From the UHGV virus genome UHGV-0234394: a stretch of DNA of 36,353 nt. One strand, given 5' to 3'. This document shows positions 2,799 through 25,894 of the stretch, in pieces. Made by a program: the position numbers and the translations under genes. The stretch's first letter is position 1. Every line of letters begins with the position of its first letter. The notes beneath the pieces were generated by a model. That model was not told the DNA's origin and did no database searches. It worked only from the letters and a program-made list of their open reading frames with translations. The stretch is from a virus.

Positions 2799-3086
2799 AT
2801 GACCAAAGACCATGCACAAGGTGTATTTATCCGTTTTATTGATTTTCGCGGTGAACTGTTATTACGTGCATCCGCTATTGACGGAGTAACTCCGGCGGGT
2901 AAAAACGGAGCCGACGAAGCCACTTACGTTTATCTGAACGGCACGCGACTGCTTGTGGAACTTCCGTACCAGACCGTACGAGAAATCATTAGCGAAGCTG
3001 AAAAGGCACGCCAGGTTAATGGCGATGAACCCTATATCGAAATTATTTGTATGGATTCAGAAGCTGAAATACAGAAAGCAGATTAA
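2799..3086 (+). CDS. hypothetical early protein (95 aa, MTKDHAQGVF...)
   Basis: In-frame ATG at 2799 within track ORF 2685..3086, chosen to avoid overlap with the upstream gene. Confidence 0.5.
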   Translation: MTKDHAQGVFIRFIDFRGELLLRASAIDGVTPAGKNGADEATYVYLNGTRLLVELPYQTVREIISEAEKARQVNGDEPYIEIICMDSEAEIQKAD

Positions 3087-3097
3087 AGGGCGTTGTG

Positions 3098-3340
3098 ATG
3101 GGCAAAGAATATAAAACTCTCATTAACAAAGCACTTGAGCGTTTTTATTTTCGCTTAAGTGCATCAGGCGCTCATGCTGAACGTGCGGCCCGTGACTCAT
3201 TGACCAGAGCAATCCGAAGTCTGTATGACGTGGCTTTTTACGCTGATGATCTGGATGCACTTAACGAACTTTCCGAGCTGATCTGTGCCGCAGAGTGCGG
3301 GGAACATATTGAACCGTATAAGCTGGGGAATATCGCATGA
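3098..3340 (+). CDS. hypothetical early protein (80 aa)
   Basis: Track ORF 3095..3340; ATG at 3098 preferred. Confidence 0.5.
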   Translation: MGKEYKTLINKALERFYFRLSASGAHAERAARDSLTRAIRSLYDVAFYADDLDALNELSELICAAECGEHIEPYKLGNIA

Positions 3341-3450
3341 GTATATTTATCTCATGGCTTGTTCTGATTATTTCGGTGGCCTGCGCTATTGGGATTATGC
3401 GAATTATTCATTCAATAAAAAAGATTGAACGCTTTTTCACTGGCGAATAA
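3337..3450 (+). CDS. small hydrophobic peptide (37 aa, MSIFISWLVLIISVACAIGIMRIIHSIKKIERFFTGE)
   Basis: ATG overlaps the preceding stop (ATGA); single TM-like segment followed by a basic tail. Confidence 0.3.
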   Translation: MSIFISWLVLIISVACAIGIMRIIHSIKKIERFFTGE

Positions 3451-3535
3451 CAGAGCAAATAAAACCACAAATTAAATAAGAAAATGTAAAACAATCCGCA
3501 TTCGCGGAGGTATTCGCACACGCCAAGGAGGCGTA

Positions 3536-3739
3536 ATGGCAATTAAGCATTTTCCTGTCGTTCGTTTTACCTCCAGAGGGCGTGAATACGAAGTCGACGA
3601 ACGCCTGATTACCACAATCGACAAACACCGTTCAGAAAAGGATGCACATCACATCTATCTCACTGACGGCACTTACTTCTGCGCCACGAATGTGGTGCGG
3701 GTGAACCTTATCCGACAGGTACAGGAGTCACGCAGATGA
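3536..3739 (+). CDS. hypothetical protein (67 aa)
   Basis: Track ORF with GGAGG 7 nt upstream of the ATG. Confidence 0.55.
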   Translation: MAIKHFPVVRFTSRGREYEVDERLITTIDKHRSEKDAHHIYLTDGTYFCATNVVRVNLIRQVQESRR

Positions 3740-3981
3740 CCATTCTGGACTATATCGCCGCCAATCCGGGGTGTAGCGGTGGAGAAATCGCCGCAGCACT
3801 GAATACCCCAACCACAGCCATTAATGCGGAGTTACGCCGACTCTGGCGCAGCGGTTCAGTCATAAGAAAAGAGCGCAAAACAGGCGGTCGCTTTTCTTAC
3901 CAGATAAACCCGATGCCGTTCGGGTGCGGCAATCCACTTACCAACATGTTTAACCAGCTACTGAAGGAAGCCAGAGCATGA
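3736..3981 (+). CDS. hypothetical protein (81 aa), possibly DNA-binding
   Basis: Track ORF; start overlaps upstream stop; helix-turn-helix-like impression only. Confidence 0.5.
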   Translation: MTILDYIAANPGCSGGEIAAALNTPTTAINAELRRLWRSGSVIRKERKTGGRFSYQINPMPFGCGNPLTNMFNQLLKEARA

Positions 3982-4277
3982 GCGCCATCAACCACCAGGA
4001 ATTACGCGAACTGGCGACTGACCTGCAACGAATGGCAACGCCTCAAAAATTACTGGCGTTTCGCGCAATGCTCTCGCCGTCTGCTGTGCTGGCGCTGCTG
4101 GATGAGCTGGAGCACGCCAGAACCACACCTCTCGCCATTCGCCTGACGCTCCGTCATGAAATCGAGGATTTCTGCGCGACGTTGGAGGCGCCAGGCGAAC
4201 CGGAAACGCCAGAAGCAATACAGCAAGAGCTGCTGCAACGCATTGACAAGGTTTTTGATTTTTTTCTGAACCACTAA
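3978..4277 (+). CDS. hypothetical acidic protein (99 aa)
   Basis: Track ORF; ATGA start/stop overlap with the upstream gene. Confidence 0.5.
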   Translation: MSAINHQELRELATDLQRMATPQKLLAFRAMLSPSAVLALLDELEHARTTPLAIRLTLRHEIEDFCATLEAPGEPETPEAIQQELLQRIDKVFDFFLNH

Positions 4278-4289
4278 GAAACCAGAACA

Positions 4290-4600
4290 TGCACACACAA
4301 AAAAACCGCTTGCCATGCCGCAATCAGTCAGGTTACATTTCCGCTGCACCTCACAAAACGGGTGCCGGGTTTCGCAGCCTGCTGACTACACAAGCGCACA
4401 ACCGCGCCAGCGGTTTTTTTGTGCGTACTGTATTGCCACGTTTTTTTCGCGTCAGAATTATGGCGGGGCGTACGGGGCCGACTTCGGTCGGGCCGGGTTC
4501 TTGTGTAGCCGGTACTGCGAACCTCGTACGTCTCGCCACCCACAGTTTCGCAGCTCTGGATGGTGAGTTTTCACAACTTACTACACAAGGGGCCACACCA
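4290..4600 (+). other. structured non-coding region (candidate regulatory RNA or terminator cluster)
   Basis: No credible ORF; perfect 15-bp inverted repeat cacaaaaaaaccgct (4296-4310) / agcggtttttttgtg (4409-4423); T7 runs; GC hairpin with a TTCG loop at about 4476-4496. Confidence 0.35.
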
Positions 4601-4830
4601 TGGCAAACCGCAAACCACACCGCGCTATCGCGGAGCGTCGTCACATCCAGACTGAAATCAACCGCAGACTTTCCCGCGCATCACGCGTCGCGCAAATCAT
4701 GCACATCAATATGCTGCATGAGCGCAGCCACGCACTATCAAACATTTATTCCGCCTCTGTTTTCAGCTATCTGGCGGATGATCTGCACGAGCTTCAACAG
4801 CTCATCCAGCAGCAAAACAAACTCCATTAA
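4600..4830 (+). CDS. hypothetical basic protein (76 aa)
   Basis: Track ORF. Confidence 0.45.
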   Translation: MANRKPHRAIAERRHIQTEINRRLSRASRVAQIMHINMLHERSHALSNIYSASVFSYLADDLHELQQLIQQQNKLH

Positions 4831-4902
4831 CTCCTGTTCCGGGCCTTTCCTGCACCTTGCGGCGGGAGGCCTTCGCACATCTGTAACAAGAGGATTGCCG
4901 CA

Positions 4903-5268
4903 ATGATTCTCGCCAACGACTTTCTTGAATACCTGCTCAACACAGAACGTGATCTTGCCGCTCGCGTGCGTGATCGTTATGACATGTACCTGAAATCCCT
5001 GCCTGTACCGCAGCTCGCTGACGGAAAGATTGTTATTGATGGTCGCTACATGATTGACAGCCACGAGGGAAATTACAGGCTTTACCGCATTGAAGGTGGC
5101 ACCCCGTCCGTTATTGGCATTTACCAGCGCCCATCCTCTGCAATCGTCGATGTGATTGCCGACAGCATCCGCATCACACATCGCCATGCCGACACAGAAG
5201 ACACCATGCTGGAAATTCAGCGGCTGGCTACAGTCTGCCGCGACACCCTGAATGGCATGACGAAGTAA
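4903..5268 (+). CDS. hypothetical protein (121 aa)
   Basis: Track ORF with AAGAGGA upstream; immediately precedes gene A. Confidence 0.5.
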   Translation: MILANDFLEYLLNTERDLAARVRDRYDMYLKSLPVPQLADGKIVIDGRYMIDSHEGNYRLYRIEGGTPSVIGIYQRPSSAIVDVIADSIRITHRHADTEDTMLEIQRLATVCRDTLNGMTK

Positions 5269-5274
5269 ATCACT

Positions 5275-8097
5275 ATGACGGCAGAGTACATCAGGGACTG
5301 GCAACAACCGCGCCACGCAGTGGGGCGTGAAGGAACGGGGATCCCCGCTCCTGAATCCGCGCTTTCCTCCTGGCTGGATGCCTACCGGGTAGAGAACGAG
5401 CACCGCCAGGAAATGGCTGATGCGGCGTTCTCCGCAACGCCGCTGGGCAACCTGATTAATAAAAGCCTGGACGCACAGGAAAAACAGGACAAAACCATCA
5501 CACTGGCAGGAGATGCCAGAAAACAGGCACGCGGCGCGGTGGATGAAGCCATGGCCTCGCTGCGCCTGCTGCCGTCCTATCTGCGCGATCCGCTTATTCG
5601 CCACCTCTCCTTCCTGTGCAAAAAACAGGAAGCCGATCGTCAGAAAGGCAAAAAGAGCTGGCAGGCTGAACGCTACGCGCGCGGAAACCTGCGCAAAATA
5701 TTCGAACGTCTGGAGCGCACCGATCACCGCTGGCTGACACAGGGTTATCGCTCCCTTGCCGGACGCGAACGCCTGGACGATTTGCTTTACCTGCCGCAGC
5801 TCAACAAACACCAGATACAGACACTGGCCACCATGACGGCGGCGATGTTCAGCAGCACCTTCGAAAAACTCTGCGATGGCTTTGGCGCGACCGATGGCGA
5901 ACTGACCATGGATGTAACACTGAAGGCGTATCAGATGCTGGCCCGCATGGCGTTACACCTGCACGCCATGCCTCCACATTATGACGCACTGACAACAGAC
6001 AAAGACCGGAGGAACGAACCGGACACGGAGCTGCTGCCGGGCGCAATCCTTCGCCTGACCTGTGCAGAATGGTGGAAACGCAAACTGTGGCTGTTACGTT
6101 GCGAGTGGAGAGAAGAACAACTCCGCGCCGCCTGTCTGGTTTCCAGAAAAACATCGCCCTATCTGAGCCAGGACGCGTTAAGCGAGTTTCGCGCACAGCG
6201 CGAGAAAACACGCGATTTCCTGAAAAGTTTCATGCTGGAAAATGAAGACGGGTTCACGATTGATCTCGAGACGGTGTATTACGCGGGAGTAAGTAACCCG
6301 GTTCACCGTAAGGCAGAAATGATGGCCACCATGAAGGGGCTGGAACTTCTGGCCGAAGCCCGTGGCGACAAAGCGGTGTTTCTGACTGTCACCTGCCCGT
6401 CAAAATACCACGCCACAACAGAGAACGGTCATCCGAATCCCAAATGGAACGGGGCCACCATGCGCGACTCCAGCGATTACCTGGTTAACACGTTTTTTGC
6501 GGCGGTCCGCAAAAAACTGAACCGCGACGGTCTTCGCTGGTATGGCATCCGCACGGTGGAGCCTCACCATGACGGCACCGTGCACTGGCATATGATGGTC
6601 TTTGCTCATCCGGAAGAAATCGACAGCATCGTGGCCATCACCCGCGATATTGCCATTCAGGAAGACCGCCACGAGCTGGGCAATGATATTACTCCGCGCT
6701 TTAAGGCGGAGTATGTCGACGGCTCAAAAGGCACACCAACCAGCTATATCGCGACCTACATCGGAAAGAACCTGGACAGCCGCGCCGTGGATGGCATCGA
6801 CCCGAAAACGGGCAAGCCACGCGTTGACCACGAAACCGGAAAATCAATGGCCGAGAGTGTGGAGCGCGCCATCGGCTGGGCGCGCCTTCATCGGGTCCGC
6901 CAGTTCCAGTTCTTTGGCATCCCCTCCCGTCAGGTGTGGCGTGAACTGCGCCGCCTTGCCAGCCAGATGGCACGCAACCCGGAAGGCCCGCAACGACTGA
7001 AAGATGACGCAATGGATGCGGTACTCGCTGCCGCCGATGCCGGGTGTTTTGCCACCTACATTGAAAAACAGGGCGGCGTACTTGTTCCACGCAAAGACTA
7101 CCTGATTCGCACCGCCTACGACCTCGCAGATGAGCTGAATGATTACGGCGAACAGAGCGTACAGATTTACGGGATCTGGTCACCACTCATCGGGGAATCC
7201 TCCCGTGTGTGCACGCATCCGGATAACTGGAAACTGGTAAGACGTAAACCGGAAACGGAAGACAGCGCCCGCGAAAATGGTTTTGACCTTCAGGGCGGCC
7301 CTGCCGCCCCTTGGACTCGTGGCAATAACTGTCCCCGTGTACAGGAAACGGACAACAACGGGACAGAACAGCCGGAAGAACGGCCAGCACCGTGGCCGCA
7401 GCTCCCTGACGGCGTTGATGTGGATGAATGGATGCGCTCACTGAAACGGCACGAACGCCGGGCGCTGATGCGTTCGCTTCGTGACAAACAGGCAAAAAAC
7501 AGCAGTGATGAAATGCAGAGCTGGACACAGAGCCGCAAACAGCAGCGGCCTTTGCCTGATAACCACGAATTACTCGCTAAAGAATGGCGGGAGTCTGCTG
7601 AATCTCTCGGCCTGCATATCGGTGAACAACAGATGCAGCACCTGTTACGGGGCGGCAGTCTGTACGTTGACGGCAGCATCATTGCACCGCAGGGATTTGA
7701 AATTGTACGCAAACCGGATACTCGCCCGGACAGCCGAATCACGCAGCTCTGGCAGCGCCTGAGCCGTAATCACGGCGTAAGTAGCACGGAGATCCGCCAT
7801 AACCCGGTCGCCAGCTATCTGGAACAGCTGGAGGCATCAGACCCCGAAGCCGCCGCACGCCTGGCATCCACACTTCAGCAGGACCAGAACACCATGAAAA
7901 CACCCGTTACCGTGCTTTCTGACATGCTGCGCGCCATCCGCGACGCAGAGCACGCACAGAGAATCAGTGAAACCACTGAACGCGCCCGCCGCAAAGCAGA
8001 CCTGCTGCGGGGTGGCCTGACCAGTGGAAACAAAAAACAGACAGAAACGGGACTCACGAATCCCGTAAATGAGCAAAAAACGCGCAGCGATATATGA
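5275..8097 (+). CDS. A: rolling-circle replication initiator endonuclease (P2 gpA family), long form of 940 aa
   Basis: HUH-type motif in TVHWHMMVFAH and paired tyrosines in YIATYIGK; position after the early genes as in P2. Confidence 0.85.
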   Translation: MTAEYIRDWQQPRHAVGREGTGIPAPESALSSWLDAYRVENEHRQEMADAAFSATPLGNLINKSLDAQEKQDKTITLAGDARKQARGAVDEAMASLRLLPSYLRDPLIRHLSFLCKKQEADRQKGKKSWQAERYARGNLRKIFERLERTDHRWLTQGYRSLAGRERLDDLLYLPQLNKHQIQTLATMTAAMFSSTFEKLCDGFGATDGELTMDVTLKAYQMLARMALHLHAMPPHYDALTTDKDRRNEPDTELLPGAILRLTCAEWWKRKLWLLRCEWREEQLRAACLVSRKTSPYLSQDALSEFRAQREKTRDFLKSFMLENEDGFTIDLETVYYAGVSNPVHRKAEMMATMKGLELLAEARGDKAVFLTVTCPSKYHATTENGHPNPKWNGATMRDSSDYLVNTFFAAVRKKLNRDGLRWYGIRTVEPHHDGTVHWHMMVFAHPEEIDSIVAITRDIAIQEDRHELGNDITPRFKAEYVDGSKGTPTSYIATYIGKNLDSRAVDGIDPKTGKPRVDHETGKSMAESVERAIGWARLHRVRQFQFFGIPSRQVWRELRRLASQMARNPEGPQRLKDDAMDAVLAAADAGCFATYIEKQGGVLVPRKDYLIRTAYDLADELNDYGEQSVQIYGIWSPLIGESSRVCTHPDNWKLVRRKPETEDSARENGFDLQGGPAAPWTRGNNCPRVQETDNNGTEQPEERPAPWPQLPDGVDVDEWMRSLKRHERRALMRSLRDKQAKNSSDEMQSWTQSRKQQRPLPDNHELLAKEWRESAESLGLHIGEQQMQHLLRGGSLYVDGSIIAPQGFEIVRKPDTRPDSRITQLWQRLSRNHGVSSTEIRHNPVASYLEQLEASDPEAAARLASTLQQDQNTMKTPVTVLSDMLRAIRDAEHAQRISETTERARRKADLLRGGLTSGNKKQTETGLTNPVNEQKTRSDI

Positions 8098-9350: not shown

Positions 9351-9721
9351 TAAATAGCATTCCCTGAACGATGTCGCAGAGACACAACAGAATGGCCATA
9401 TTTCTCACGCTGAGCATGAAAAAGGCGTGAGGGCTTTTGATTTGATGGGGTGAAAGGTAAGGCCGTCAAAATCGCACTGAGGCAGCGAGAACATACAGTC
9501 AACGCGGTGGAATTGCGTAAGAGTCTGACCGTCGATGGTGGCGATAAACTGGAAGGCGTCGTGAAATTATCTGATTGATACAGGAGCTGGAGAGCCGGGG
9601 CATAAATTTTTTATGCCCCGGCGAAGCAGCAGACAAGCGAAGCGCGTCAGCGATACGGCACCTTGCCGACCATACTTCATAAGTGCAAAATACGAGCAAA
9701 GAAATCAATGGAGGCTGTCTT

Positions 9722-10246
9722 ATGGTCATTAATTACAAGCAGTTAAGAGAAAAACGGGAGCAGGTAAAGGAGAGCTTTCGCCGCAATGAAGATCTGACCC
9801 CGCTTGTACGCCTTGCCCAGGGCATTGTTGATGCTTATGAAATCTCGCTGGAGCTGCCATCACAGACCTGGACAGATAGCGACGGTAATCGCCAGCATTA
9901 CGTTTCATGCGGACTGGAAGCAGCCGAAGGATTTCGCAGAATGCCTTTATCCCAGATCCCTGCCGCTACCCCCAAAGCATGGGGCAGCAATGATGAGCGA
10001 AAACTGACTTTTAGTATTGAAACGGTGGTTGACGACACACCTGGCGAAGTCGCGTTCGTACACACTCCTGTTTCGATCGCAATGTATAACGATGAAATAC
10101 AGGTTCGCGTTAATAATAATATCGTGCCACTTAAAGAAGGTAATTCACCCTACACCACCGTTTGTGAAGCCATTCAATATTACGTTCTCTCTGAAATTGA
10201 TAATCTCAAGCCTGACGGCACCCAGAAAATGGTTCAACTCTGGTAA
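9722..10246 (+). CDS. hypothetical protein (174 aa), accessory gene of unknown function
   Basis: Track ORF 9683..10246; ATG at 9722 has GGAGG 7 nt upstream; no recognisable motif; ends at a bidirectional terminator. Confidence 0.6.
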   Translation: MVINYKQLREKREQVKESFRRNEDLTPLVRLAQGIVDAYEISLELPSQTWTDSDGNRQHYVSCGLEAAEGFRRMPLSQIPAATPKAWGSNDERKLTFSIETVVDDTPGEVAFVHTPVSIAMYNDEIQVRVNNNIVPLKEGNSPYTTVCEAIQYYVLSEIDNLKPDGTQKMVQLW

Positions 10247-10277
10247 AAAGGACAGCCCCATCACGGGGCTGTTTTTT
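10245..10277. terminator. bidirectional intrinsic terminator
   Basis: A5, stem acagcccc/ggggctgt, then T6; sits between convergent ORFs. Confidence 0.7.
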
Positions 10278-11307
10278 CATCAAGAAGAGCATAAGAGTTA
10301 AAACGGATCACCTCTTCGCCAAGCCAGTCATTGATGTGCTTCATAGCCTCCATGACGGGCATCAGCTCGTTAATTGCGTAAACCCGCGCTGCCTTCTCCA
10401 CATCGCCAAACGCACTTTTTTCGCCCGGCATCGCCCCCATCAGTTGCGGCGGAACGCGGTGCGCAGCCAGCACATCATCACGGGATGCCGCCTTAACATT
10501 CATGAATTCATCTTTTGCGGTGATCTGCTGGAACGGCAAAATTTGCACCCCCTCTTTGCCCCCGTTGGGCGCATGAATGAGCACGTTTTTAAACGCACCA
10601 CCACCACGTGCCCCCTGTAGCGTTTCTTTCAGGGAGTCCATGCTTTCGCGGTTTACCTGCGCTGCACCGATGTAGATGATGCACCCGGCGTGGGATCCGT
10701 TGTCGTAGTACAGTTTTCTGAACATGTCCGCCGAATGAGAAAGGCTGGCCGAGAGTAATGCGCCAAGATATTCCGGCATGCCGTAGATTTCCTGGTTAAT
10801 ATCCGGATTCATCAGGTGGCACACTTTGCCAGGACGAAACTGAAACGCGTCCTTGCCATCCTGCACATACCACCATGATTCAAGATCGCTTCCGCGTCGC
10901 ATGTATTTCGCCAGGGCGTGCCGTAATTTAAGCGGTTCGCCGAGCATATTGCTTCGAAGCTCAAGGAATGCGTTACCGAACACAAACCAGTCCAGCGCCA
11001 GCGCCGAGAAATCCTGCCGGGAAAGCAGCGGGTGCGGGATGTAGCAACCGAGTAATACATTGCGCTTAAAGTAAAGCGCAGACTGATGCCAGGACGTTTG
11101 CCGGGCAGCTCTTGCCAGACCGTACCAGTCCACCGGGGTTTCATACCACCGCCCGTTATCAGCACAGTACATATTGTCCAGCAGGTCATGCCCGGTCAGG
11201 CGATAAGGACCATCAAATGTGAATGCACTGAGCGATGATTCTTTCCTGAGCGCATCAGCGAGATCAATGCGTGAACTCATGCGCACTTTTTTATTTTTTC
11301 TGCTCAT
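10261..11307 (-). CDS. Q: portal protein (P2 Q-like)
   Basis: 348 aa; position and orientation as P2 Q, adjacent to terminase; start codon not refined. Confidence 0.8.
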   Translation of the reverse strand: MSRKNKKVRMSSRIDLADALRKESSLSAFTFDGPYRLTGHDLLDNMYCADNGRWYETPVDWYGLARAARQTSWHQSALYFKRNVLLGCYIPHPLLSRQDFSALALDWFVFGNAFLELRSNMLGEPLKLRHALAKYMRRGSDLESWWYVQDGKDAFQFRPGKVCHLMNPDINQEIYGMPEYLGALLSASLSHSADMFRKLYYDNGSHAGCIIYIGAAQVNRESMDSLKETLQGARGGGAFKNVLIHAPNGGKEGVQILPFQQITAKDEFMNVKAASRDDVLAAHRVPPQLMGAMPGEKSAFGDVEKAARVYAINELMPVMEAMKHINDWLGEEVIRFNSYALLDEKTAP

Positions 11308-13058
11308 CAGAACTCCATAACTGTGAAACGCTCGTTTTCTCCTTCGCCGCCAATTGGTTCGTTAATGACAGCAAGCATGGTTGCCCACGCAAGGTCGCCG
11401 TGGCTGATCCCCCTCGCGCGGTCCGTTTCGTAAGTGATAAAGCCGCCCGGTGTTTTCACCTTACGCACGGCGTTAAAGGCTGCGACCAGCTCGCGTTCGG
11501 CGCGATCGTATTCCCACCGCCCGGCACGCATTATTTGCAGCATTTTCAGTACCAGCGACCGTTTTGATGACAGCGTGAAGGTGTACGGAATAGCAGCAGG
11601 GAAAAACCGTTTCACTATCTGATAAACAGCCTCCCCGTTCCCGCCCGTCACATCAATGCCGATGTGTTCCACGTTGTAGCGACACGTGAACTCTTCAATG
11701 ACTCTGGCCTGTTCTTCAAACTCCAGCCCCTGAACGCGTCGCGTCTCCACCGTTCGAAAACGGCCACCAGGAACAGACGGAGGAACCACCACGGACACAG
11801 CGCCGCTGTCGCCGTTGCCACTGCTGCCGTTTGCGTCATACCCAATCCATACCGGACGATTCCCCATCGGGCGGGGAGCAAAAGGTTTCCAGTCTTTCCA
11901 GTCGTCGTATCCGTCAACACCACAGCCAATCAGGATATTCAGGTTAAATGCCGATTCCCCTTCGCGGACAAACTCACACATATAGAGATTGAGGAACTCG
12001 TCTTCGGTGTTTTCATCACGAATTTCATCAATATCGGTGTGTTTCCAGCCGTGATTAACCACATCTTCCAGCGTGACAATTTGCCGCCACGTCCGGTCAG
12101 GGCAGATAAGCCCGTTATGCAGCGTTTTCCAGTCCACAGAAAAACGCTGGCGTTTATGCGTGGCCTTTTTCTCGTTCCAGCGGTCGCCGTTCCAGTAGGC
12201 GTATGCCTCGTGCGTTTCGGTGGATGGCGTGGAGAAGTAGGTGCGCCGCAGTCCGCTGAGGGTTGCCATAGCGCCAGCCACCTTGCGCAGTTCAGCAAAG
12301 CGACTGACCCAGAAAAATTCATCAAAATAAAAATTGCCCGTATAGGACTGCGCCGACGCAGCAGAAGTGCCGAGAAAATGCAGCTCTGCGCCGTTGGAGA
12401 GGATGATTTTATCGCCCCCTTTCAGCTCCACATCAACTTCAGCCGCGGCCTTCTGAATAATGCTTTTAAACTGGAACGCCTGACGACGCGACGCAGACAA
12501 AAAAATCTGGTTACGCTGGTAAGGTTGCGCCACATCGTCACGCAGCGCCATCAGCAGTGCTTCCTGTGCAAAATACCAGGTCGCGCCAATCTGTCGGGAT
12601 TTCAGGATCATCCTGTTACGTATCCCGGCTTCCCTGCAAAGGGTCAGGGAGTCAAACCAGCCCCGCTGATGCCACTCCAGCCTGCTGATGATTTTTTCCC
12701 GCAGTGCGGCAATCTGTTCCGGCGTGAAATGATTTTTGAGTTTTTTCGCCCGGCCTTTCTTTCCTGTGGCCGTCGCATCCGGCTGGCCATCATGCATTTT
12801 TTTAAGCTGCCGGGTCAGCAGGTCTATTTCCTTAAAGTCACCGCCTGTTTTATTCTGTTTTTCAGTAAGCTGGATGAGGCGCGCATCGATGGACTGCGTG
12901 ACACGCTGCACGGGTGGCGTTTCATCCCACTGGTCGCGTTTTTTCCACGCATAAATCGTGTTCGGGTTTATTCCCATCAGACGTGATATTTCTGCGGGCG
13001 GATAACCCTGCCAGTAAAGTTGCCGCGCACGCTGGCGCACAAAAGCGTCCTGAATCAT
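11307..13058 (-). CDS. P: terminase large (ATPase) subunit (P2 P-like)
   Basis: 583 aa; same size class and position as P2 P, divergent from O. Confidence 0.85.
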   Translation of the reverse strand: MIQDAFVRQRARQLYWQGYPPAEISRLMGINPNTIYAWKKRDQWDETPPVQRVTQSIDARLIQLTEKQNKTGGDFKEIDLLTRQLKKMHDGQPDATATGKKGRAKKLKNHFTPEQIAALREKIISRLEWHQRGWFDSLTLCREAGIRNRMILKSRQIGATWYFAQEALLMALRDDVAQPYQRNQIFLSASRRQAFQFKSIIQKAAAEVDVELKGGDKIILSNGAELHFLGTSAASAQSYTGNFYFDEFFWVSRFAELRKVAGAMATLSGLRRTYFSTPSTETHEAYAYWNGDRWNEKKATHKRQRFSVDWKTLHNGLICPDRTWRQIVTLEDVVNHGWKHTDIDEIRDENTEDEFLNLYMCEFVREGESAFNLNILIGCGVDGYDDWKDWKPFAPRPMGNRPVWIGYDANGSSGNGDSGAVSVVVPPSVPGGRFRTVETRRVQGLEFEEQARVIEEFTCRYNVEHIGIDVTGGNGEAVYQIVKRFFPAAIPYTFTLSSKRSLVLKMLQIMRAGRWEYDRAERELVAAFNAVRKVKTPGGFITYETDRARGISHGDLAWATMLAVINEPIGGEGENERFTVMEF

Positions 13059-13212
13059 TGCTCCCCCTGAGTAATTACAGGAAGATTACCCGCGCGCGAA
13101 ACCGTTCTCCTTACCCCCCTGTTCTGGCCGTTTTCTTACAACAAAAGCCCTTTGTATCAGCCTGTTACGCTTTGCCATCATGACTGAAGAACCAGTCAGA
13201 GGGGCAAAAACT

Positions 13213-14049
13213 ATGGCTAATGAAAAAAAGACATCCCGCAAAAAGTTTCGCGTGGCTGTCTCCGGTGTAACGGCAGACGGGCGCGAAATCAACGGCGACA
13301 TGCTGAAAGCTGCCGCCACCAGTTATAACCCGTCCGTTTATGGTGCACGTGTGAATATTGAGCACATCCTGTCACCACTCCCCGGTAGCGAGTTTTCCGC
13401 TATGGGCGATGTTGTGGGGTTGAGCACCGAAGACATAACCGATGGCCCGCTGGCAGGCCGCACGGCACTGTATGCCGAAATTGAGCCGACCGCTCGCATG
13501 ATGTCCCTGCTTAACGATGGTAAAAAAATTTACTCCAGTATTGAGCTGGAACCACAGTCAACCATCACGGGAGGCCCTTACCTGCGCGGGCTGGCAATGA
13601 CCGACACCCCTGCCAGCCTGGGCACGGAACGTCTGGCCTTTGCGGCACAACAACGTATGCAACTGATGACATTCAACTGTCAGCAGGGAGACGTGGCGAT
13701 GTTTACCGCCGCTATGGAGTCAGAACTTATCGAACTCACCGAACAACGTCAGGAAGAAGGCACCCAGTGGTTTAACCGCGTTATGGGGATTATTGGCCGT
13801 GGCCGCAAAGCGGATGACGCCAGTTTCTCCCGTATTCAGGAAGCGGTGGAAGGTGTCGCAACGTCACAGGCCGACATTATCGACCGTTTTAATGTGCTGG
13901 AAACCCGCCATCAGCAGGACAGCCAGAAAATCACTTTACTGACCACAGAGCTGGCAGCACTGAAGGAAAAACTGCGCACGCAGGACGGCGATCCGCAGAA
14001 CCGGTTCACCGCAACAGGTGCAGCCTCCGACCAGCTGGCTGACTTCTGA
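13213..14049 (+). CDS. O: capsid scaffolding protein (P2 O-like)
   Basis: Track ORF 13180..14049; ATG at 13213 with GAGGGG upstream; position before the major capsid gene. Confidence 0.8.
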   Translation: MANEKKTSRKKFRVAVSGVTADGREINGDMLKAAATSYNPSVYGARVNIEHILSPLPGSEFSAMGDVVGLSTEDITDGPLAGRTALYAEIEPTARMMSLLNDGKKIYSSIELEPQSTITGGPYLRGLAMTDTPASLGTERLAFAAQQRMQLMTFNCQQGDVAMFTAAMESELIELTEQRQEEGTQWFNRVMGIIGRGRKADDASFSRIQEAVEGVATSQADIIDRFNVLETRHQQDSQKITLLTTELAALKEKLRTQDGDPQNRFTATGAASDQLADF

Positions 14050-14072
14050 TAAGACAAAGGAGCAAATTTTTT

Positions 14073-15125
14073 ATGAATCTGGTGATGTCAGATATTACCC
14101 GCAACAAGCTGGGTTGCTATATGGCGCAGCAGGCGTCGCTTAACAATATCCCGGTTTCTGCACTGGTATCGCGATTTACCGTGGAACCCGCGGTGCAGCA
14201 GCGTTTTGAAAACGCCTCAAAGGAAAGTACCGAATTTACGAAAAGAATTAACGTGATCGGCGTGACCGACCAGAAAGGCGAAAAAATCCTCCTGGATACC
14301 ACAGGACCGATTGCGCGCACGAATACCAGTTATGACGGCACAAAACGCCGTAACCCGAATAACGTGGTTGATCTGAAAAACCGCAAATACCAGTGCGAAC
14401 AGGTGAACTACGACACGTTTATTTCGTATCCGCAGCTTGATGCCTGGTCGGCACACCCTGATTTTCAGTCCCGCATCAGCGCACAGATTGCCCGACAGGT
14501 GGCACTTGACCGCATCATGATCGGTTTCAACGGCACGTCTCACGCGGATGAGTCCAACTTCAGCACCAACAAGTTGCTTCAGGACGTTAACGTGGGGTGG
14601 CTGGAGCACATCAGAACCGACGCCAGCGAACGCGTTATGAATGACGTGACGCTGACCTCCCGTAACATGGACAACACCGTGGCGCACGCGGGTAAGTATG
14701 CGAACGCTGATGCACTGGTACAGGACGCGCGCTCATCCCTGCTGGATGAATGGCACAAGGAAGCTGACGACCTCGTGGTGATTATGGGGCGCAACCTGTT
14801 TAACTCGCTGCGTCTGCCCGTGCTAAACAGCATCAGCGGCCAGAATCCCAATGCGGAATTACTTGCCGGGCAGCTCATTCTGTCATCGCGCACCATTGGC
14901 GGGCTGGGCGTGTTCCTTGCGCCGTTCTTCCCGGATTCAACGATGCTGATCACCTCGTTCAACAACCTGTCGATTTACTGGCAGAAAGGTTCAATGCGTC
15001 GTCTGATGAAAGATGAACCGGAATACAACCGCATCGCCACCTACCAGTCCATCAATGACGCTTATGTCGTTGAAGACTATGGCAAGTGCGCGATGGTCAC
15101 TGGCCTGAAGTTCGCCGACAGCTAA
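14073..15125 (+). CDS. N: major capsid protein (P2 N-like)
   Basis: 350 aa; clear resemblance to P2 N along its length (GFNGTS, LSIYW, YVVEDY regions). Confidence 0.9.
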   Translation: MNLVMSDITRNKLGCYMAQQASLNNIPVSALVSRFTVEPAVQQRFENASKESTEFTKRINVIGVTDQKGEKILLDTTGPIARTNTSYDGTKRRNPNNVVDLKNRKYQCEQVNYDTFISYPQLDAWSAHPDFQSRISAQIARQVALDRIMIGFNGTSHADESNFSTNKLLQDVNVGWLEHIRTDASERVMNDVTLTSRNMDNTVAHAGKYANADALVQDARSSLLDEWHKEADDLVVIMGRNLFNSLRLPVLNSISGQNPNAELLAGQLILSSRTIGGLGVFLAPFFPDSTMLITSFNNLSIYWQKGSMRRLMKDEPEYNRIATYQSINDAYVVEDYGKCAMVTGLKFADS

Positions 15126-20942: not shown

Positions 20943-21474
20943 ACCGTCACTTCTCCCCCCTTCAGCCAGCGATTTCATGCGCTGCGTGGAGCGGGGGGCT
21001 ACCCGGTTGTCAGCATTACCTGTCAGCCTTAATCAGCTCTGGGATCCTGACACCTGCCCGGTGGCCCTGCTGCCTTATCTGGCGTGGGCGCTGTCCGTGG
21101 ACAGGTGGGATCGTGACTGGACGGAAGAAACAAAGCGCCAGGTGATCCGTGATGCCTGGGCAATCCACCGCCATAAGGGAACCATCAGCGCCATCAGGCG
21201 TGTGGTTGAACCCTTTGGCTATGTCATTAACGTGACGGAATGGTGGGAAACCGGCGATCCGCGAGGGACTTTCCGGCTGGACATCGGTGTACTGGATACC
21301 GGTATCTCCGCTGCGACCTATACCGAGCTGGAGCGCCTCATCGATGATGCCCGCCCGGTGAGTCGCCATCTTACCGGATTAAATATTGTGCAGGACATTT
21401 ACGGGGATGTGTACGCCGGCGGGGCGGTATTTTGCGGCGACACTATTGAGGTTTATCCGGGAGAGGTTGTCTGA
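20935..21474 (+). CDS. I: tail protein I
   Basis: Track ORF 20872..21474; ATG at 20935 overlaps J stop; about 179 aa as P2 I. Confidence 0.75.
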   Translation: MSEPSLLPPSASDFMRCVERGATRLSALPVSLNQLWDPDTCPVALLPYLAWALSVDRWDRDWTEETKRQVIRDAWAIHRHKGTISAIRRVVEPFGYVINVTEWWETGDPRGTFRLDIGVLDTGISAATYTELERLIDDARPVSRHLTGLNIVQDIYGDVYAGGAVFCGDTIEVYPGEVV

Positions 21475-21476
21475 AT

Positions 21477-24323
21477 ATGAAATATGGTGCCATTATCACA
21501 GCGGCTGGCGCTGCCAGGCTTGCTGCAGCCACAACAGCAACAGGCCAGAAGCTGAACATCACTCACATGGCCGTGGGAGATGGTAATGGAAATCTCCCGG
21601 AACCATCGGCCTCACAGACCGCCCTGAACAATGAAGTCTGGCGCGGGACGCTGAATAAAATTACACAGAACAGCAAAGCGCCAAATCAGGTGATTGCGGA
21701 ACTGGTTATTCCTCCGGAAGTTGGCGGCTTCTGGATGCGGGAGCTGGGGTTGTATGACGACAGCGGAACCCTGATTGCCGTCGCCAATATGGCAGAAAGC
21801 TACAAGCCGTTACTCGCCGAAGGTTCGGGGCGCTCAATGGTCTGCCGCATGTTCATCATCATCAGCGATATGAACGCGGTGAATCTGTCAGTGGACAGCA
21901 GCGTCATTGCCGCAACACAGGAATATGTTAACGAAGCCATCTCCGGCCTGCACCGCGCCATCATTGATGATGTGGTTCTTCAGCATAAAGTTGTCCACGA
22001 TATTGACTACACCGGGATTTTTGACGGCGCGGATAAGATGAGCCAGGGGTTCTGTATCTGTGATACGCCGCAGGGAACCCGAATGTTTCTGCATCAGCCT
22101 GTATCGGGTGGCGTAAGGATTGTTGAAACGATATTTAACCCTGACGGAGAAAACGAAAACCCGACGGTCATTTCGTTTTCTCCCGTTTTCGCTGATATTG
22201 GTCACCAGAGTATCGGGGCTGTATGTGAAGACGATCGCGTGATGCTGTATACCCCGACCGCTGACGGCAAGGGTGTGAATATCATCAACTGGAATGGGGC
22301 TGACACCAGTCTGACAGATGTCACCCGTACGGAGATTTTCACCTCTGACTTTTTTACCGGGGATGAAATTATAACGGTGGCATTGTCGGCAGACGGAAGC
22401 CTGTTAATTGTTCAGTCAGGTGATGAGGCCGTCCATCTTCATTACAACAGGGATGATCGCCGCACAGTTTATGTTTTCGATCGCGCCTCTCTGACGTTTA
22501 AACACCGGATTTATCTGTCCACCCAGCCAATGGTGTCGCAGGCATTTCAGGGGATGGCCAGCGATGGTCATTATCTTTTTGCTTATTACGGTTATACAGG
22601 CGTATTTCTGACTCACCGCATTGTTGTATATAACCTGTCAACGGGCGAAGTTGTCAGACAGTTCAATGTGGATGGCGTTCGTGCCAGGTATGGTCGCCAG
22701 AAAATGCTGGGGAATGCAGAGCTGGGGTATCCCGTTTTGCAGGAAGCCGAAGGGCTGGCTCTCCATAACGGAAAACTGTATCTGCTCGATATGGATTTCT
22801 GGTGTCAGACAGCCGATGTGGTTTCTTTTGAGGGGGCATACTTTGCAGCACGTGCAACAAATTTTTCTGGCCGTTCCCCGGTGAATCCATCTTACTGGAC
22901 GCCTACAGCATATGGAACGGCGGCTGCAACGAAATATGATGCCACGAAGTCTTATACGTGTGGTGTGGCGACAAAACGCAGCAAAGCTGTGGTTTCCGTG
23001 GAGGCTTACGACGGCACAGGCTATCTGGTGGACTCCGGCGTGGCGTTTCCTGATAGCCATGCCAGCCTTTTTCTGAGTCCCAATGCTGTAAATATAGCCC
23101 TGTCACCCAATGAAGACTTCCAGGTGGCAGCCTATGAGCAGAATCTGCGCTCGCATCGCCCGTTATTTGAGGTCAGAAAGGAGGCTCCGGATACAGACAC
23201 TTCTGCTGCTGTTTTTCGTTTGTTCGGGGATGCGTTCCGAACCGGAGAATACACAGGCCGCTTCGTTCAGTGGAAACACCGCCTGAACGACGTGCACGAT
23301 TGTCTGGAAATACGCGCTGACGTGGATTTGTTGAGCGGTGGCGGGATTAACCTTTACTCAATGAACGATACTCAGTCGGCGGGACGCACAAGGCTTTATT
23401 GCACCGATGGCAGTGAAACCTGGTCTGTATTATTGAGTCCGGTCTCGCCGTCATTTCATCCCGACCAGGACAAGGCAATGAATCTGGGGTCATCGCCAAA
23501 TCGCTGGAATGTGGCATACCTGCAGGGCGTGAATATTAAATCGGATGACGAAACCCAGAAGCGCATGGCCATCAGCACCACGCTGAAGGCGGGAGCTTTC
23601 CAGGTATCAACAGCCGGGAATCTGGGTATTTATGACGATTCTGCTGACGCTTATGTAATTGCAGCCCGTAGTGACGGCACTGCATTCATGCAGATGGATA
23701 CAGATATTAACGGTGCATTCCGGCCATCGGTTAACAATACCAGCGACCTGGGTGCGCCCAACAAAGCATTCCGGAGCGTGTATCTCTGCAACTCGCCGAC
23801 CATTGTGTCGGATGCGACGTTAAAGGATACACCGCGCGATGCGACGGCAGCCGAAAACGCGGCATTTGCAGAAATAGCACGGCTTCCGGGCGTGTGGCGC
23901 TGGTTACAGAGAATTGAGGAGGAGGGCGAGGACGCGCGTCTGCACGCCGGGCCGACAGTCCAGGCCGCGATAGCCGTGATGGAGAAACACGGTCTGGACT
24001 GGCGGAAATACAGCGCATTTTGTCTGGATTCGTGGGAAGCGGAGGAGGCACAGTACGAAGATATACCGGAAGAGTATGAAGATATTCCGGTTCAGCCAGC
24101 GATTTATTCGGATGAAGGGGAGCTGTTGAGCGGGACAACCCGTGTGCTTACCCGACAGGCGGAAAGGGTTCTTGTTCGTCCTGCAACCGAAGCAGGAAGC
24201 CGTTATCGCTTCCGGAAAGAGGAGCTTCTCTGGTGGTGTCTGCGTGCTGTTGTCAGCCAGGTGGATGCGCTGACAGAGAGTATCAGCGCACTTACCCGCC
24301 GTGTTGATTTACTGGAGGAATAA
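21477..24323 (+). CDS. H: tail fibre protein (P2 H-like N-terminus) with divergent C-terminal region and apparent intramolecular chaperone domain
   Basis: N-terminal about 150 aa closely resemble P2 H (ELVIPPEVGGFWMRELGLYDDSGTLIAVANMAESYKP); C-terminal part contains SDATLK at codon 778 (nt 23808). Confidence 0.85.
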   Translation: MKYGAIITAAGAARLAAATTATGQKLNITHMAVGDGNGNLPEPSASQTALNNEVWRGTLNKITQNSKAPNQVIAELVIPPEVGGFWMRELGLYDDSGTLIAVANMAESYKPLLAEGSGRSMVCRMFIIISDMNAVNLSVDSSVIAATQEYVNEAISGLHRAIIDDVVLQHKVVHDIDYTGIFDGADKMSQGFCICDTPQGTRMFLHQPVSGGVRIVETIFNPDGENENPTVISFSPVFADIGHQSIGAVCEDDRVMLYTPTADGKGVNIINWNGADTSLTDVTRTEIFTSDFFTGDEIITVALSADGSLLIVQSGDEAVHLHYNRDDRRTVYVFDRASLTFKHRIYLSTQPMVSQAFQGMASDGHYLFAYYGYTGVFLTHRIVVYNLSTGEVVRQFNVDGVRARYGRQKMLGNAELGYPVLQEAEGLALHNGKLYLLDMDFWCQTADVVSFEGAYFAARATNFSGRSPVNPSYWTPTAYGTAAATKYDATKSYTCGVATKRSKAVVSVEAYDGTGYLVDSGVAFPDSHASLFLSPNAVNIALSPNEDFQVAAYEQNLRSHRPLFEVRKEAPDTDTSAAVFRLFGDAFRTGEYTGRFVQWKHRLNDVHDCLEIRADVDLLSGGGINLYSMNDTQSAGRTRLYCTDGSETWSVLLSPVSPSFHPDQDKAMNLGSSPNRWNVAYLQGVNIKSDDETQKRMAISTTLKAGAFQVSTAGNLGIYDDSADAYVIAARSDGTAFMQMDTDINGAFRPSVNNTSDLGAPNKAFRSVYLCNSPTIVSDATLKDTPRDATAAENAAFAEIARLPGVWRWLQRIEEEGEDARLHAGPTVQAAIAVMEKHGLDWRKYSAFCLDSWEAEEAQYEDIPEEYEDIPVQPAIYSDEGELLSGTTRVLTRQAERVLVRPATEAGSRYRFRKEELLWWCLRAVVSQVDALTESISALTRRVDLLEE

Positions 24324-24325
24324 TT

Positions 24326-24610
24326 ATGGACTTAACACCGGTGTTCCATGCACTTTGTGCGGTGGCCACTCAGTTTCTGGTGGGTCTTTTTACCGGAAAC
24401 TGGGCTTACGGAGCGATAGCCGGTTGCACGTTCTTCATTGCGCGTGAACACACCCAGGCAGAATATCGCTGGATTGAAATGTTCGGGCATGGCAGGCGTA
24501 TGAATATGCCGTGGTGGGGCGGTTTTGACCCACGAGCGTGGGATATGGCAAGTCTGATGGATTTTGCAGTGCCGGTGGTGGCATGTCTGCTGGTCTGGCT
24601 GGTCGTATGA
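24326..24610 (+). CDS. small membrane protein (94 aa) at the position of P2 Z/fun
   Basis: Track ORF starting 2 nt after H stop; two or three hydrophobic segments; followed by an intrinsic terminator. Confidence 0.55.
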   Translation: MDLTPVFHALCAVATQFLVGLFTGNWAYGAIAGCTFFIAREHTQAEYRWIEMFGHGRRMNMPWWGGFDPRAWDMASLMDFAVPVVACLLVWLVV

Positions 24611-24622
24611 CGTAGCAGGAAA

Positions 24623-24647
24623 CAGGGGGATTTGCCCCTGTTTTTTT
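24623..24647 (+). terminator. intrinsic terminator
   Basis: Stem cagggg/cccctg followed by T7. Confidence 0.6.
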
Positions 24648-24778
24648 GTTCAGAATGCAGCCTTCACCATTCGTCTCTAATCGTATTCAGTAATTCGCCC
24701 GCAGAAACAAACTAAAATTCATCCCCCACATCACGCCACTGAAAGCAGACGGTAAACTCCAGATTTTCAAACCAGCGT
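24648..24778 (-). pseudogene. degraded duplicate of the 3' end of tail gene U
   Basis: About 130 bp, roughly 75-80% identical by eye to 25429-25560 (3' end of intact U) in direct orientation, including an identical 21-mer ttcagtaattcgcccgcagaa; in-frame stops in the copy. Confidence 0.6.
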
Positions 24779-25093
24779 CAGAAGTATTTAAATGGCACCA
24801 GATGTAATATGCAGGCGATTAATATGGTGTGCTTAAAGATCATAAAAGCGGGCAACATTAAAACTCTGGGCTGTGTAAATTACCGCCACTCATAATCAGA
24901 GATGAAAACAGAATTAAACTGGCGGCGTGGATTGTATACATAAAATAAGTTCAGTTGTTGACTTTCACTTCCGTGAGTTGATGAGGGTTATTACAATACA
25001 CCGGTATGATCTCTCCTCCTTAAAAGGGAGGACTTTTCAGAACGCAGAAATTATTTATAATCCCGTAGTGTTCTACACATGCCAACATTCTTT

Positions 25094-25118
25094 GCCCGCC
25101 CCGTGCGGGCTTTTTTTT
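25094..25118 (+). terminator. intrinsic terminator in a non-coding island
   Basis: gcccgc-cccgt-gcgggc followed by T8. Confidence 0.6.
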
Positions 25119-25208
25119 GCCATAAAGACACAGTAACAAACAGAATTGTAATCAGAGCAATAAAATCATGAAAAACATTTTCATTGATGACGATAACAAT
25201 TAAAAATA

Positions 25209-25238
25209 TTGCATTAAATGATTCCCGTTCAATATAAT
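25209..25238 (+). promoter_or_regulatory. sigma70-like promoter (TTGCAT-18-TATAAT)
   Basis: -35 at 25209-25214, -10 at 25233-25238. Confidence 0.45.
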
Positions 25239-25244
25239 CCCCCT

Positions 25245-25305
25245 GCAACCAGAAAAATTAAATCTTCACACAATGCATGTTGCCCTCTTTATGAGGGCTT
25301 TTTTA
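25245..25305 (+). ncRNA. candidate small RNA (about 60 nt) between promoter and terminator
   Basis: Promoter above followed about 45 nt later by hairpin gccctc/gagggc (25282-25298) and T-run; no credible ORF with SD. Confidence 0.3.
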
Positions 25306-25397
25306 TTTCCCGAATATCACCATTGCCATCATCGGGCGATTTATATATAGTCAGAATGTATTGACAACATTTTGCTTCTTTTCCATGAAGGCCATAA

Positions 25398-25427
25398 GGG
25401 AGTGCTTTTTACACTCCCTCTTTTTTT
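25398..25427 (+). terminator. intrinsic terminator abutting the 3' end of U
   Basis: gggagtg-loop-cactccc followed by TCTTTTTTT. Confidence 0.5.
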
Positions 25428-25429
25428 AT

Positions 25430-25894
25430 TCAGAATGCCGCTGTCGCCATTTTGTCTTTAAGCGTGTTCAGTAATTCGCCCGCAGAAGCAGACTGAAACC
25501 TCTCCCTCATATCCTCATCACACCGCTGAAAGCTGATGGAGAACTCAATCTTTTTTGCCTTTCCGTAACGATCCAGTTCGGAGCGGGTGGTCTGTAATCC
25601 CGTAATCACGTACATTCCGTAAATCTGCCCCGTGCCATCAATCAGCGGCCAGGGACATCCTGTGTAGGCCTGGGTGTTCAGTAGTGTCAGCGACACCTCA
25701 CCGCCGGTAATTTCCGGGTACAGCAAACCGGACAGCGTGATCTGGTCATCACCTGCACCGATATACTGCCAGGCTGCAGAGCGGTTAATGCGCTCATTTT
25801 TCACATGTCGCCATGTTTTGCTCTGCTGGATCTGCTGATGCGGCAGCGTGCGCAGCTCAAAAACAAACATGCCGTAGATCATCATCATGGTCAT
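25430..25894 (-). CDS. U: tail protein U
   Basis: 154 aa; size and position next to the tape measure as in P2. Confidence 0.75.
   Translation of the reverse strand: MTMMMIYGMFVFELRTLPHQQIQQSKTWRHVKNERINRSAAWQYIGAGDDQITLSGLLYPEITGGEVSLTLLNTQAYTGCPWPLIDGTGQIYGMYVITGLQTTRSELDRYGKAKKIEFSISFQRCDEDMRERFQSASAGELLNTLKDKMATAAF

Follow-up and report, generated by a model that had tools for sequence, protein, structure and literature searches.

The virus genome UHGV-0234394, a DNA stretch of 36,353 nucleotides (nt) that is referred to over its full length as the window, carries a small gene at positions 24326–24610, directly behind the gene of its tailspike, a receptor-binding protein (RBP). The gene encodes a protein of 94 amino acids (aa) that belongs to PHROG 1443, a family annotated as of unknown function. 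We found members of this family beside mutually unrelated RBP genes in phages and prophages, and also on bacterial chromosomes at a distance from phage genes. Our preferred interpretation, to which we assign a probability of about 0.4, is that the protein is an accessory inner-membrane protein of cellular origin, which may be made late in infection, act on a conserved component at the cytoplasmic leaflet, and condition the membrane of the infected cell. The gene and its flanking signals are located as follows.

24326–24610, plus strand: gene of the 94-aa protein, a predicted three-helix inner-membrane protein of the PHROG 1443 family (open reading frame, PHROG match, homologues, predicted local distance difference test (pLDDT), and ratio of nonsynonymous to synonymous substitution rates (dN/dS)).
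24314–24319, plus strand: Shine–Dalgarno sequence GGAGGA, within the last codons of the tailspike gene (sequence inspection).
24620–24650, plus strand: intrinsic terminator with a 9-bp stem, AAACAGGGG/CCCCTGTTT, followed by a T-run (sequence and terminator scan).

The open reading frame (ORF) opens with the earliest start codon available in that frame and ends with the stop codon TGA at 24608–24610. Its ATG at 24326 is separated by a gap of 2 nt from the TAA stop codon of the tailspike gene (24321–24323), and the GGAGG core of the Shine–Dalgarno sequence ends 7 nt upstream of this ATG. The terminator hairpin starts ten bases after the stop codon, with stem arms at 24620–24628 and 24635–24643; the terminator scan caught the core of the hairpin at 24625–24639. 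The ORF is a real gene under purifying selection, because it matches PHROG 1443, has 576 homologues, and showed a dN/dS of 0.12–0.20 (at a dS of 0.39–0.84) when compared with eight copies from E. coli phages and prophages.

The match to the PHROG 1443 profile covers the entire protein (E = 1.9e-55; residues 1–94 aligned to positions 1–94 of 97). The homologues, counted as protein clusters at 90% identity (335 clusters at 50% identity), are mostly stand-alone proteins of ~90–105 residues, with a minority of up to 146 residues, and the family is 55–65% identical across genera. The protein of the window shares 90% identity with CPT_21_24 of phage 21, annotated as 'putative membrane protein'. This protein has the same size, three hydrophobic helices and the same conserved motif, and we noted no substantial difference between the two. 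The gene of the window is an ordinary representative of a family that is already catalogued, so that the locus itself is unsurprising.

Hydrophobic segments were found at residues 5–23, 27–39 and 76–94. The original prediction had described a small membrane protein directly after the tail fibre gene, with two or three hydrophobic segments and its own terminator; this description was borne out by the 2-nt gap, by three hydrophobic segments and by the hairpin at 24620–24643 with its T-run. The AlphaFold2 model, for which a 28-sequence alignment was used as input, contains three helices at residues 4–23, 26–52 and 74–93 (mean pLDDT 94.2; predicted template modelling score 0.76). The corresponding parts of the gene are listed below.

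24335–24394, plus strand: helix 1 (residues 4–23), with the invariant His8 (AlphaFold2, alignment).
24401–24481, plus strand: helix 2 (residues 26–52) (AlphaFold2, alignment).
24482–24544, plus strand: Trp-rich loop (residues 53–73), G.G.R58.NMPWWGGFD.R.W72, predicted to be cytoplasmic (alignment, counts of lysine plus arginine).
24545–24604, plus strand: helix 3 (residues 74–93), with the conserved Asp79 and Pro83 (AlphaFold2, alignment).

Conservation was scored on 113 representatives of the clusters at 50% identity. Residues H8, R40, E41, Q44, A45, E46, R58, W72 and P83 were near-invariant, and Y47, R48, I50 and D79 were slightly less conserved; D79 was present in 85 of the 105 aligned sequences and P83 in 107 of 108. 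Most motif residues were kept in at least 88% of the representatives, and all ten (H8 to P83) are present in the protein of the window. In helix 2, a short hydrophobic core (residues 27–39) is followed by the invariant R40-E41-x-x-Q44-A45-E46-Y-R48-x-I50. The whole stretch AREHTQAEYRWI...G.GKR.NMPWWGGFD.R.W is fixed in the enterobacterial, Aeromonas and Comamonas members, and the invariant polar motif spans four proteobacterial classes. By the register of the modelled helices, H8 in helix 1, R40, E41 and Q44 in helix 2, and D79 in helix 3 should lie at equal depth.

The mean number of lysine plus arginine residues was 0.92 in the N-terminal tail, 0.17 in the turn between helices 1 and 2, 5.28 in residues 40–73 and 0.67 in the C-terminal tail. 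By the positive-inside rule, this distribution favours a topology in which the N-terminus is inside and the C-terminus outside (N-in/C-out). The conserved cluster and the Trp-rich loop would then be found at the cytoplasmic leaflet, and only a turn of three residues and the tip of the C-terminus are predicted to face the periplasm. The pattern of the motif is closer to that of a site at which a universal membrane component is bound or converted than to the rapidly evolving surface of a typical exclusion protein. Searches for characterised relatives yielded little. In Pfam, only a sub-threshold match to the N-terminus of PhoR (E = 0.3) was obtained; NCBIfam gave no match to the 94-aa protein, and a profile search of the Protein Data Bank sequences gave nothing at E ≤ 10. 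Together, the fold and profile searches tied the family to nothing characterised and returned no informative fold match. Literature searches by context, protein accession or PHROG identifier found no publication on the PHROG 1443 family.

We used megablast, with the gene alone as query, to study its occurrence in E. coli. In total, 1887 of the 5426 complete genomes (~35%) carry the gene, at 3689 places of which 57 are on plasmids, with a median of two and a maximum of seven copies per genome. The DNA that the window shares with phage 21, Gally and vB_EcoP-611R6 comprises this gene only, at 83–89% identity and with unrelated flanks: the blastn similarity starts at 24314 for phage 21, at 24316 for Gally and at 24326 for 611R6, and ends at 24565–24601. 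The terminator, which closes the V-W-J-I-H late operon, is outside the DNA common to the other phages.

In every phage or prophage context that we inspected, the gene or a decayed remnant of it was beside an RBP gene. For this comparison, neighbouring ORFs were filtered by the GC content at third codon positions (GC3), since ORF predictions are noisy in high-GC loci, and three contexts were confirmed with the gene calls of the collection. In the lambdoid phages and prophages 21, 1H12 and PhiR49_2, the side tail fibre gene is followed by a gene for a 92-aa acidic protein of PHROG 1361 and then by the family gene. In the P22-like phages Gally, 611R6 and JEP4, the family gene lies between the tailspike gene and int, and in JEP4 the tailspike stop codon overlaps its start. 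The epsilon15-like phage phiv142-3 has it between the fibre gene and the holin-endolysin cassette, and a 106-kb plasmid with phage tail genes also has it beside an RBP gene. The order in Halomonas phage phiHAP-1 is fibre assembly gene, family gene, sheath gene. The family gene follows a 939-aa Phage_tail_fib plus S74 protein without a gap in a Leclercia HP1/P2-like prophage, follows a 2520-aa GpJ-like protein in a Comamonas siphovirus-type prophage, and lies 3' of tail spike or tail protein genes in Desulfovibrio and Chelativorans prophages. In Aeromonas jumbo phage ACP1 it is located 108 nt upstream of a tailspike-like gene, and in Aeromonas phage 62AhydR11PP ~900 bp from a convergent tailspike gene.

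The neighbouring RBPs are mutually unrelated, with S74 spikes, P22 head-binding spikes, a pectate-lyase fibre, lambdoid Stf and GpJ among them. The small protein shows little variation while the adjacent RBPs differ. We also considered whether the gene tracks one type of RBP. This was rejected, because only some of the upstream proteins contain S74 and the receptor-binding domains are unrelated.

Some further observations concern the neighbours of the family gene. The 92-aa soluble protein of PHROG 1361, a family also annotated as of unknown function, precedes it in all lambdoid contexts (positions 5710–5988 of locus L001, as CPT_21_23; 4210–4488 of L083; 4213–4491 of L086; and 5710–5988 of L007), and PHROG 18574, a distant relative of PHROG 1361, precedes it in the Comamonas prophage. 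The PHROG 1361-like gene and the family gene may form a two-gene unit. Furthermore, in lambdoid phages and prophages of the phage 21 type, the family gene is directly followed, on the opposite strand, by the sitABCD iron/manganese transporter operon (L001, 6386–9835; L078, 5365–8814; L083, 4886–8335).

Two virulent phages, the Salmonella Kuttervirus KFSST3 and E. coli phage HC6, contain only frameshifted or stop-containing remnants of the gene directly after their annotated tailspike genes. These unannotated remnants, at ~3998–4160 of the KFSST3 locus L006 and ~2960–3200 of the HC6 locus L076, look like scars of RBP modules taken from temperate phages.

Orthologues of the gene are also part of bacterial chromosomes. 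In Aeromonas, the family gene lies between a Pirin gene and a RIO1 kinase gene (Pirin -> gene <- RIO1), with DNA polymerase II, YbaK and two lipid A acyltransferase genes in the vicinity. In the A. rivipollensis chromosome this locus is at 4990–9645 of L088, and the arrangement with the Pirin gene is also found in A. aquatica and two strains of A. media. The Leclercia chromosome has the gene between a GGDEF (diguanylate cyclase) gene and a MetE-like gene. In 28 alphaproteobacterial loci, from Sphingomonas, Sphingomicrobium and others, the gene has a native GC3 of 0.60–0.89 and stands amid housekeeping genes such as those for LigA, PNPase, DAHP synthase, ThiC, COX1 and FtsZ. A conserved functional neighbour was sought in these alphaproteobacteria and rejected, as the housekeeping neighbours are scattered. 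The chromosomal orthologues, located away from phage genes, show that a PHROG 1443 protein is able to work without partners from a phage.

Expression of the gene was assessed from its sequence context. No sigma70-like promoter was found in 21400–24700, where 2.8 are expected by chance. The start codon abuts or overlaps the stop codon of the upstream RBP gene in the window, in JEP4, and at the loci L020, L029, L031, L045, L070 and L089. We infer that the gene is co-expressed with the tailspike as the last cistron of the late V-W-J-I-H operon, because there is no promoter-like site, the DNA shared with other phages starts near the ribosome-binding site, and the RBP stop is coupled to the start. 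The coupling ties the gene to a late structural gene, here and in several other phages, and speaks against its being expressed by the resting prophage. As regards the moron criteria of Hendrix and colleagues, the gene has its own terminator, and a promoter of its own was not found.

The window is a prophage of E. coli ST131 that belongs to the P88 type within the P2 family. It shares 91–96% identity with phages 500465-2, Chuche, P88 and P884B11 along most of its length. For the region 23300–25500, the match is 100% with eight complete E. coli chromosomes and 99.2% with chromosomes that bear the label O25b:H4-ST131. The gene upstream of the 94-aa gene is:

21477–24323, plus strand: gene of a 948-aa mosaic tailspike, the operon partner 5' of the 94-aa gene (domain and BLAST comparison).

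The N-terminal anchor of this tailspike is of the P2 H type (Phage_tail_fib, E = 3.6e-54; 65% identical to P2 H in residues 24–156), and its receptor-binding middle resembles the P22-like tailspike of Gally (27% identity over residues 124–557). Its C-terminus contains a Peptidase_S74 intramolecular chaperone (residues 778–840; nt 23808–23996). The S74 chaperone region as a whole (residues 745–947) resembles its counterparts in a Desulfovibrio prophage spike and in the virulent E. coli phage HC6.

In P88 and 500465-2, the same slot is occupied by a tail fibre gene with assembly genes, an alternative set in inverted orientation and a DNA invertase; this invertible fibre segment spans 9470–14472 of the P88 locus L080 and 2858–6384 of the 500465-2 locus L087. 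Neither phage has a small membrane gene in the fibre slot. Since these relatives carry an invertible fibre segment there, the tailspike cassette and the small gene have replaced it. The lineage of the window has thus traded a host-range switch for a single tailspike and a small membrane gene.

The gene had originally been assigned to the Z/fun position of P2. This assignment is only an analogy, as the FI-FII-E-T-U block is inverted in P88-type phages, where it lies on the opposite strand, and the relatives have the invertible cassette. P2 Fun(Z) is likewise an accessory protein, non-essential according to the P2 record, and its gene also has the tail fibre genes on one side and the operon of the tail sheath on the other. 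However, Fun(Z) has 528 aa, is encoded on the minus strand and is annotated as a lysogenic conversion protein that blocks T5, whereas the window gene encodes 94 aa on the same strand as H, is coupled to H and lacks a promoter-like site. A comparison of the window protein with Fun(Z) by BLASTP gave no similarity (best E = 0.43 over 20 residues). A link to the P2 Z/fun gene itself, with its different size and strand, was thus not sustained.

The preferred interpretation connects these observations as follows. The PHROG 1443 family is an ordinary chromosomal gene in several proteobacteria and also occurs as a single-gene module at or next to the RBP gene in many unrelated phages. Into the P88-like prophage of the window it came together with the tailspike cassette, and the protein would be made late, together with the tailspike, and not by the resting prophage. 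In the predicted N-in/C-out orientation, the polar cluster of H8, R40/E41, Q44, E46, R58 and D79 and the Trp-rich loop would lie at the cytoplasmic leaflet. There, the protein might bind or modify some inner-membrane component found throughout the proteobacteria, for instance a conserved membrane protein, a lipid or an ion. In this way it could condition the infected cell's membrane, and one possible pay-off would be that entry of further phage genomes is blocked. We did not find this combination of strict RBP linkage in several unrelated phage architectures, late coupling, enzyme-like invariance and chromosomal orthologues described in the literature that was searched.

Several points weigh against this interpretation. 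The timing of expression is deduced only from the absence of consensus promoters. In Gally, a terminator closes the tailspike gene and the family gene is preceded by a weak promoter-like site; in some phages the gene may therefore be expressed independently or in the lysogen. The Qin-like prophage of E. coli B, although degraded, has kept the gene intact, a hint that the host benefits rather than the lytic cycle. In this cryptic prophage (L077, 1617–5424), the fibre genes are fragments or pseudogenes, and the 97-aa family gene and the preceding 234-aa S74-domain gene are intact. Furthermore, the proposed topology depends on the positive-inside rule, and the annotators of phage 21 used TMHMM to assign two transmembrane domains with both termini inside. 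Finally, the linkage to RBP genes may be partly positional, because RBP genes are often at the 3' end of late operons, which makes this a common site for cargo.

Of the other explanations, the one that survives best is a superinfection-exclusion or lysogenic-conversion gene, whose protein is expressed by the resting prophage and blocks DNA entry or otherwise excludes phages. An accessory single-gene module beside an RBP gene would fit this role, as a comparable locus holds fun(Z) in P2 and an O-acetylase gene in 611R6. The intact copy amid the pseudogene fibres of the E. coli B prophage, the decay of the gene in virulent enterobacterial phages, and the terminator and weak promoter-like site between tailspike and family gene in Gally point in the same direction. 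Conversely, the region 21400–24700 lacks a promoter-like site, and in many phages the start of the gene is coupled to the RBP stop. Intact copies are also found in Aeromonas jumbo phages, which we take to be virulent. Per E. coli genome, the diverged copies number two in the median and seven at most, and the eight copies compared are under purifying selection; multiple, diverged and yet constrained copies fit a phage-autonomous role better than a role shared at the level of the host. Moreover, little of the protein is predicted to be exposed to the periplasm (the turn and the C-terminal tip), and it has no match in PADLOC-DB at E ≤ 10.

Inner-membrane exclusion proteins are known, for example SieA of phage P22 (PMC10883804). 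SieA blocks DNA delivery at the inner membrane, is expressed by the prophage, is specific to P22-like phages, and occurs as sequence types that are <30% identical to each other (PMC10883804). It shares with the window protein that it is a phage-encoded inner-membrane protein, and by analogy a SieA-like block of DNA delivery is one possible mode of action. In contrast to the diverged SieA types, however, PHROG 1443 is very highly conserved and has non-phage, cellular orthologues; the two proteins belong to different PHROGs, and no sequence relationship between them was detected. In all, superinfection exclusion in its classic, lysogen-expressed form is somewhat disfavoured and we consider it unlikely, while blocking of other phages by a family protein as such is possible.

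A different kind of small envelope protein is represented by Llp of T5 and Cor of phi80 and N15. These small outer-membrane lipoproteins are encoded beside an RBP gene and are matched to FhuA and to their own RBP. The window gene resembles them in encoding a small envelope protein next to a receptor-binding gene. It differs from them in that its product has no lipobox, is predicted to reside in the inner membrane, and remains constant while the neighbouring RBP changes. The gene fits the theme of a small envelope protein encoded next to an RBP gene, and it does not fit any known exclusion family.

A wider interpretation is conceivable as well, and we regard it as more speculative than the exclusion hypothesis. 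In this case, PHROG 1443 would be a cellular membrane family, either a minimal enzyme or a lipid- or ion-binding module with an invariant His/Arg-Glu/Gln/Glu/Arg/Asp cluster in the cytoplasmic leaflet, which tailed phages have captured repeatedly. It would have become a near-universal partner of exchangeable RBP cassettes, with a late action on a membrane component shared by proteobacteria that serves any type of RBP, and possibly also a downstream homology arm by which RBP modules move among myo-, sipho- and podoviruses.

The homology arm could also be the whole explanation: the gene would then be a passenger whose DNA, downstream of RBP cassettes, aids the exchange of modules, and whose protein keeps only its cellular function. 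The copies in P2-like, lambdoid and P22-like phages, 83–89% identical in nucleotides between two unrelated flanks, are suggestive of this. KFSST3 keeps the 5' half of the gene (residues 1–52) directly after its tailspike gene, as is expected if a recombination junction lies within the gene, and the entire cassette of the window replaces the different cassette of its relatives. This explanation is doubtful, however, because the low dN/dS at the given dS shows that selection acts on the protein and not on the DNA. Furthermore, ACP1, phiHAP-1 and 62AhydR11PP contain intact distant copies at only 40–45% protein identity, at which DNA homology is of no use to recombination.

We consider it improbable that the protein is a factor in lysis timing, a membrane protein of the holin or antiholin kind with influence on the moment or the manner of lysis of the infected cell. 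Class I holins have three transmembrane helices and ~100 aa, an N-out/C-in topology and a charged C-terminal tail, and are encoded in the lysis cassette. The window protein is similar to them in size (~95 aa), in its number of hydrophobic helices and in its presumed late expression. In addition, the phiv142-3 copy is located between the tail fibre gene and the holin-endolysin cassette, and the Comamonas prophage copy is followed by three small overlapping ORFs. In contrast to class I holins, however, the protein is predicted to be N-in/C-out, and most family members have no charged C-terminal tail of the holin type. The invariant polar motif and the chromosomal orthologues in conserved non-phage synteny are unlike holins too. 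P88-type phages have their lysis cassette, with holin/anti-holin and endolysin, elsewhere, and the best PHROG matches of the protein, all to families of unknown function, include no lysis families.

A role in assembly or maturation of the RBP, as a membrane-anchored helper for the folding of the tailspike or fibre or for the release of the S74 chaperone, would suit the invariable adjacency, the translational coupling and the Peptidase_S74 ends of several upstream RBPs, but it is largely refuted and very improbable, as the small protein varies little although the RBPs beside it are unrelated, is missing in P88 and 500465-2, is encoded only by broken copies beside annotated tailspike genes in virulent phages, and has chromosomal orthologues without nearby phage genes. 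The gene is therefore dispensable for RBP function and for the P88 chassis. On the same sequence comparisons, the family protein is non-structural and accessory, and not a fibre chaperone. A conserved structural or assembly component of this kind had been named as the outcome that would contradict the original prediction; the absences, remnants and cellular orthologues indicate otherwise. The Tai 'tail assembly interference' systems were also considered and found to be unrelated: they are found upstream of the module for packaging and are directed against the central fibre or needle.

Beyond the terminator, the region up to the inverted tail genes contains one further feature.

24651–25429, no strand assigned: AT-rich spacer without annotation that separates the cassette from the inverted gpU/gpT tail genes (scans of GC content, ORFs and hairpins).

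The 820 bp at 24611–25429 have a GC content of 38.8%, against 52.4% for the window, and contain no convincing ORF. Terminator-like hairpins are present at 25094–25110, 25282–25298 and 25397–25419, and both strands contain promoter-like sites. The region is present in 72 E. coli genomes and is left without annotation in all of them, and its right-hand ~500 bp also adjoin fibre-assembly genes in other prophages. An Rfam search of 24200–25600 gave chance-level matches only.

The family gene is present in ~35% of the complete E. coli genomes, often in multiple copies and in phages of several architectures. Owing to its linkage to RBP genes, it provides a landmark for locating the ends of RBP cassettes, and it is a frequent passenger in swaps of host-range modules, whether natural or engineered. 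The finding would be ordinary if the gene is inert cargo. Otherwise, the family is a candidate for a generic function at the level of the membrane, in exclusion or in conditioning of the envelope, with a conserved target in the host, and the orthologues in Aeromonas, Leclercia and sphingomonads offer a genetically simple path to its biochemical activity.

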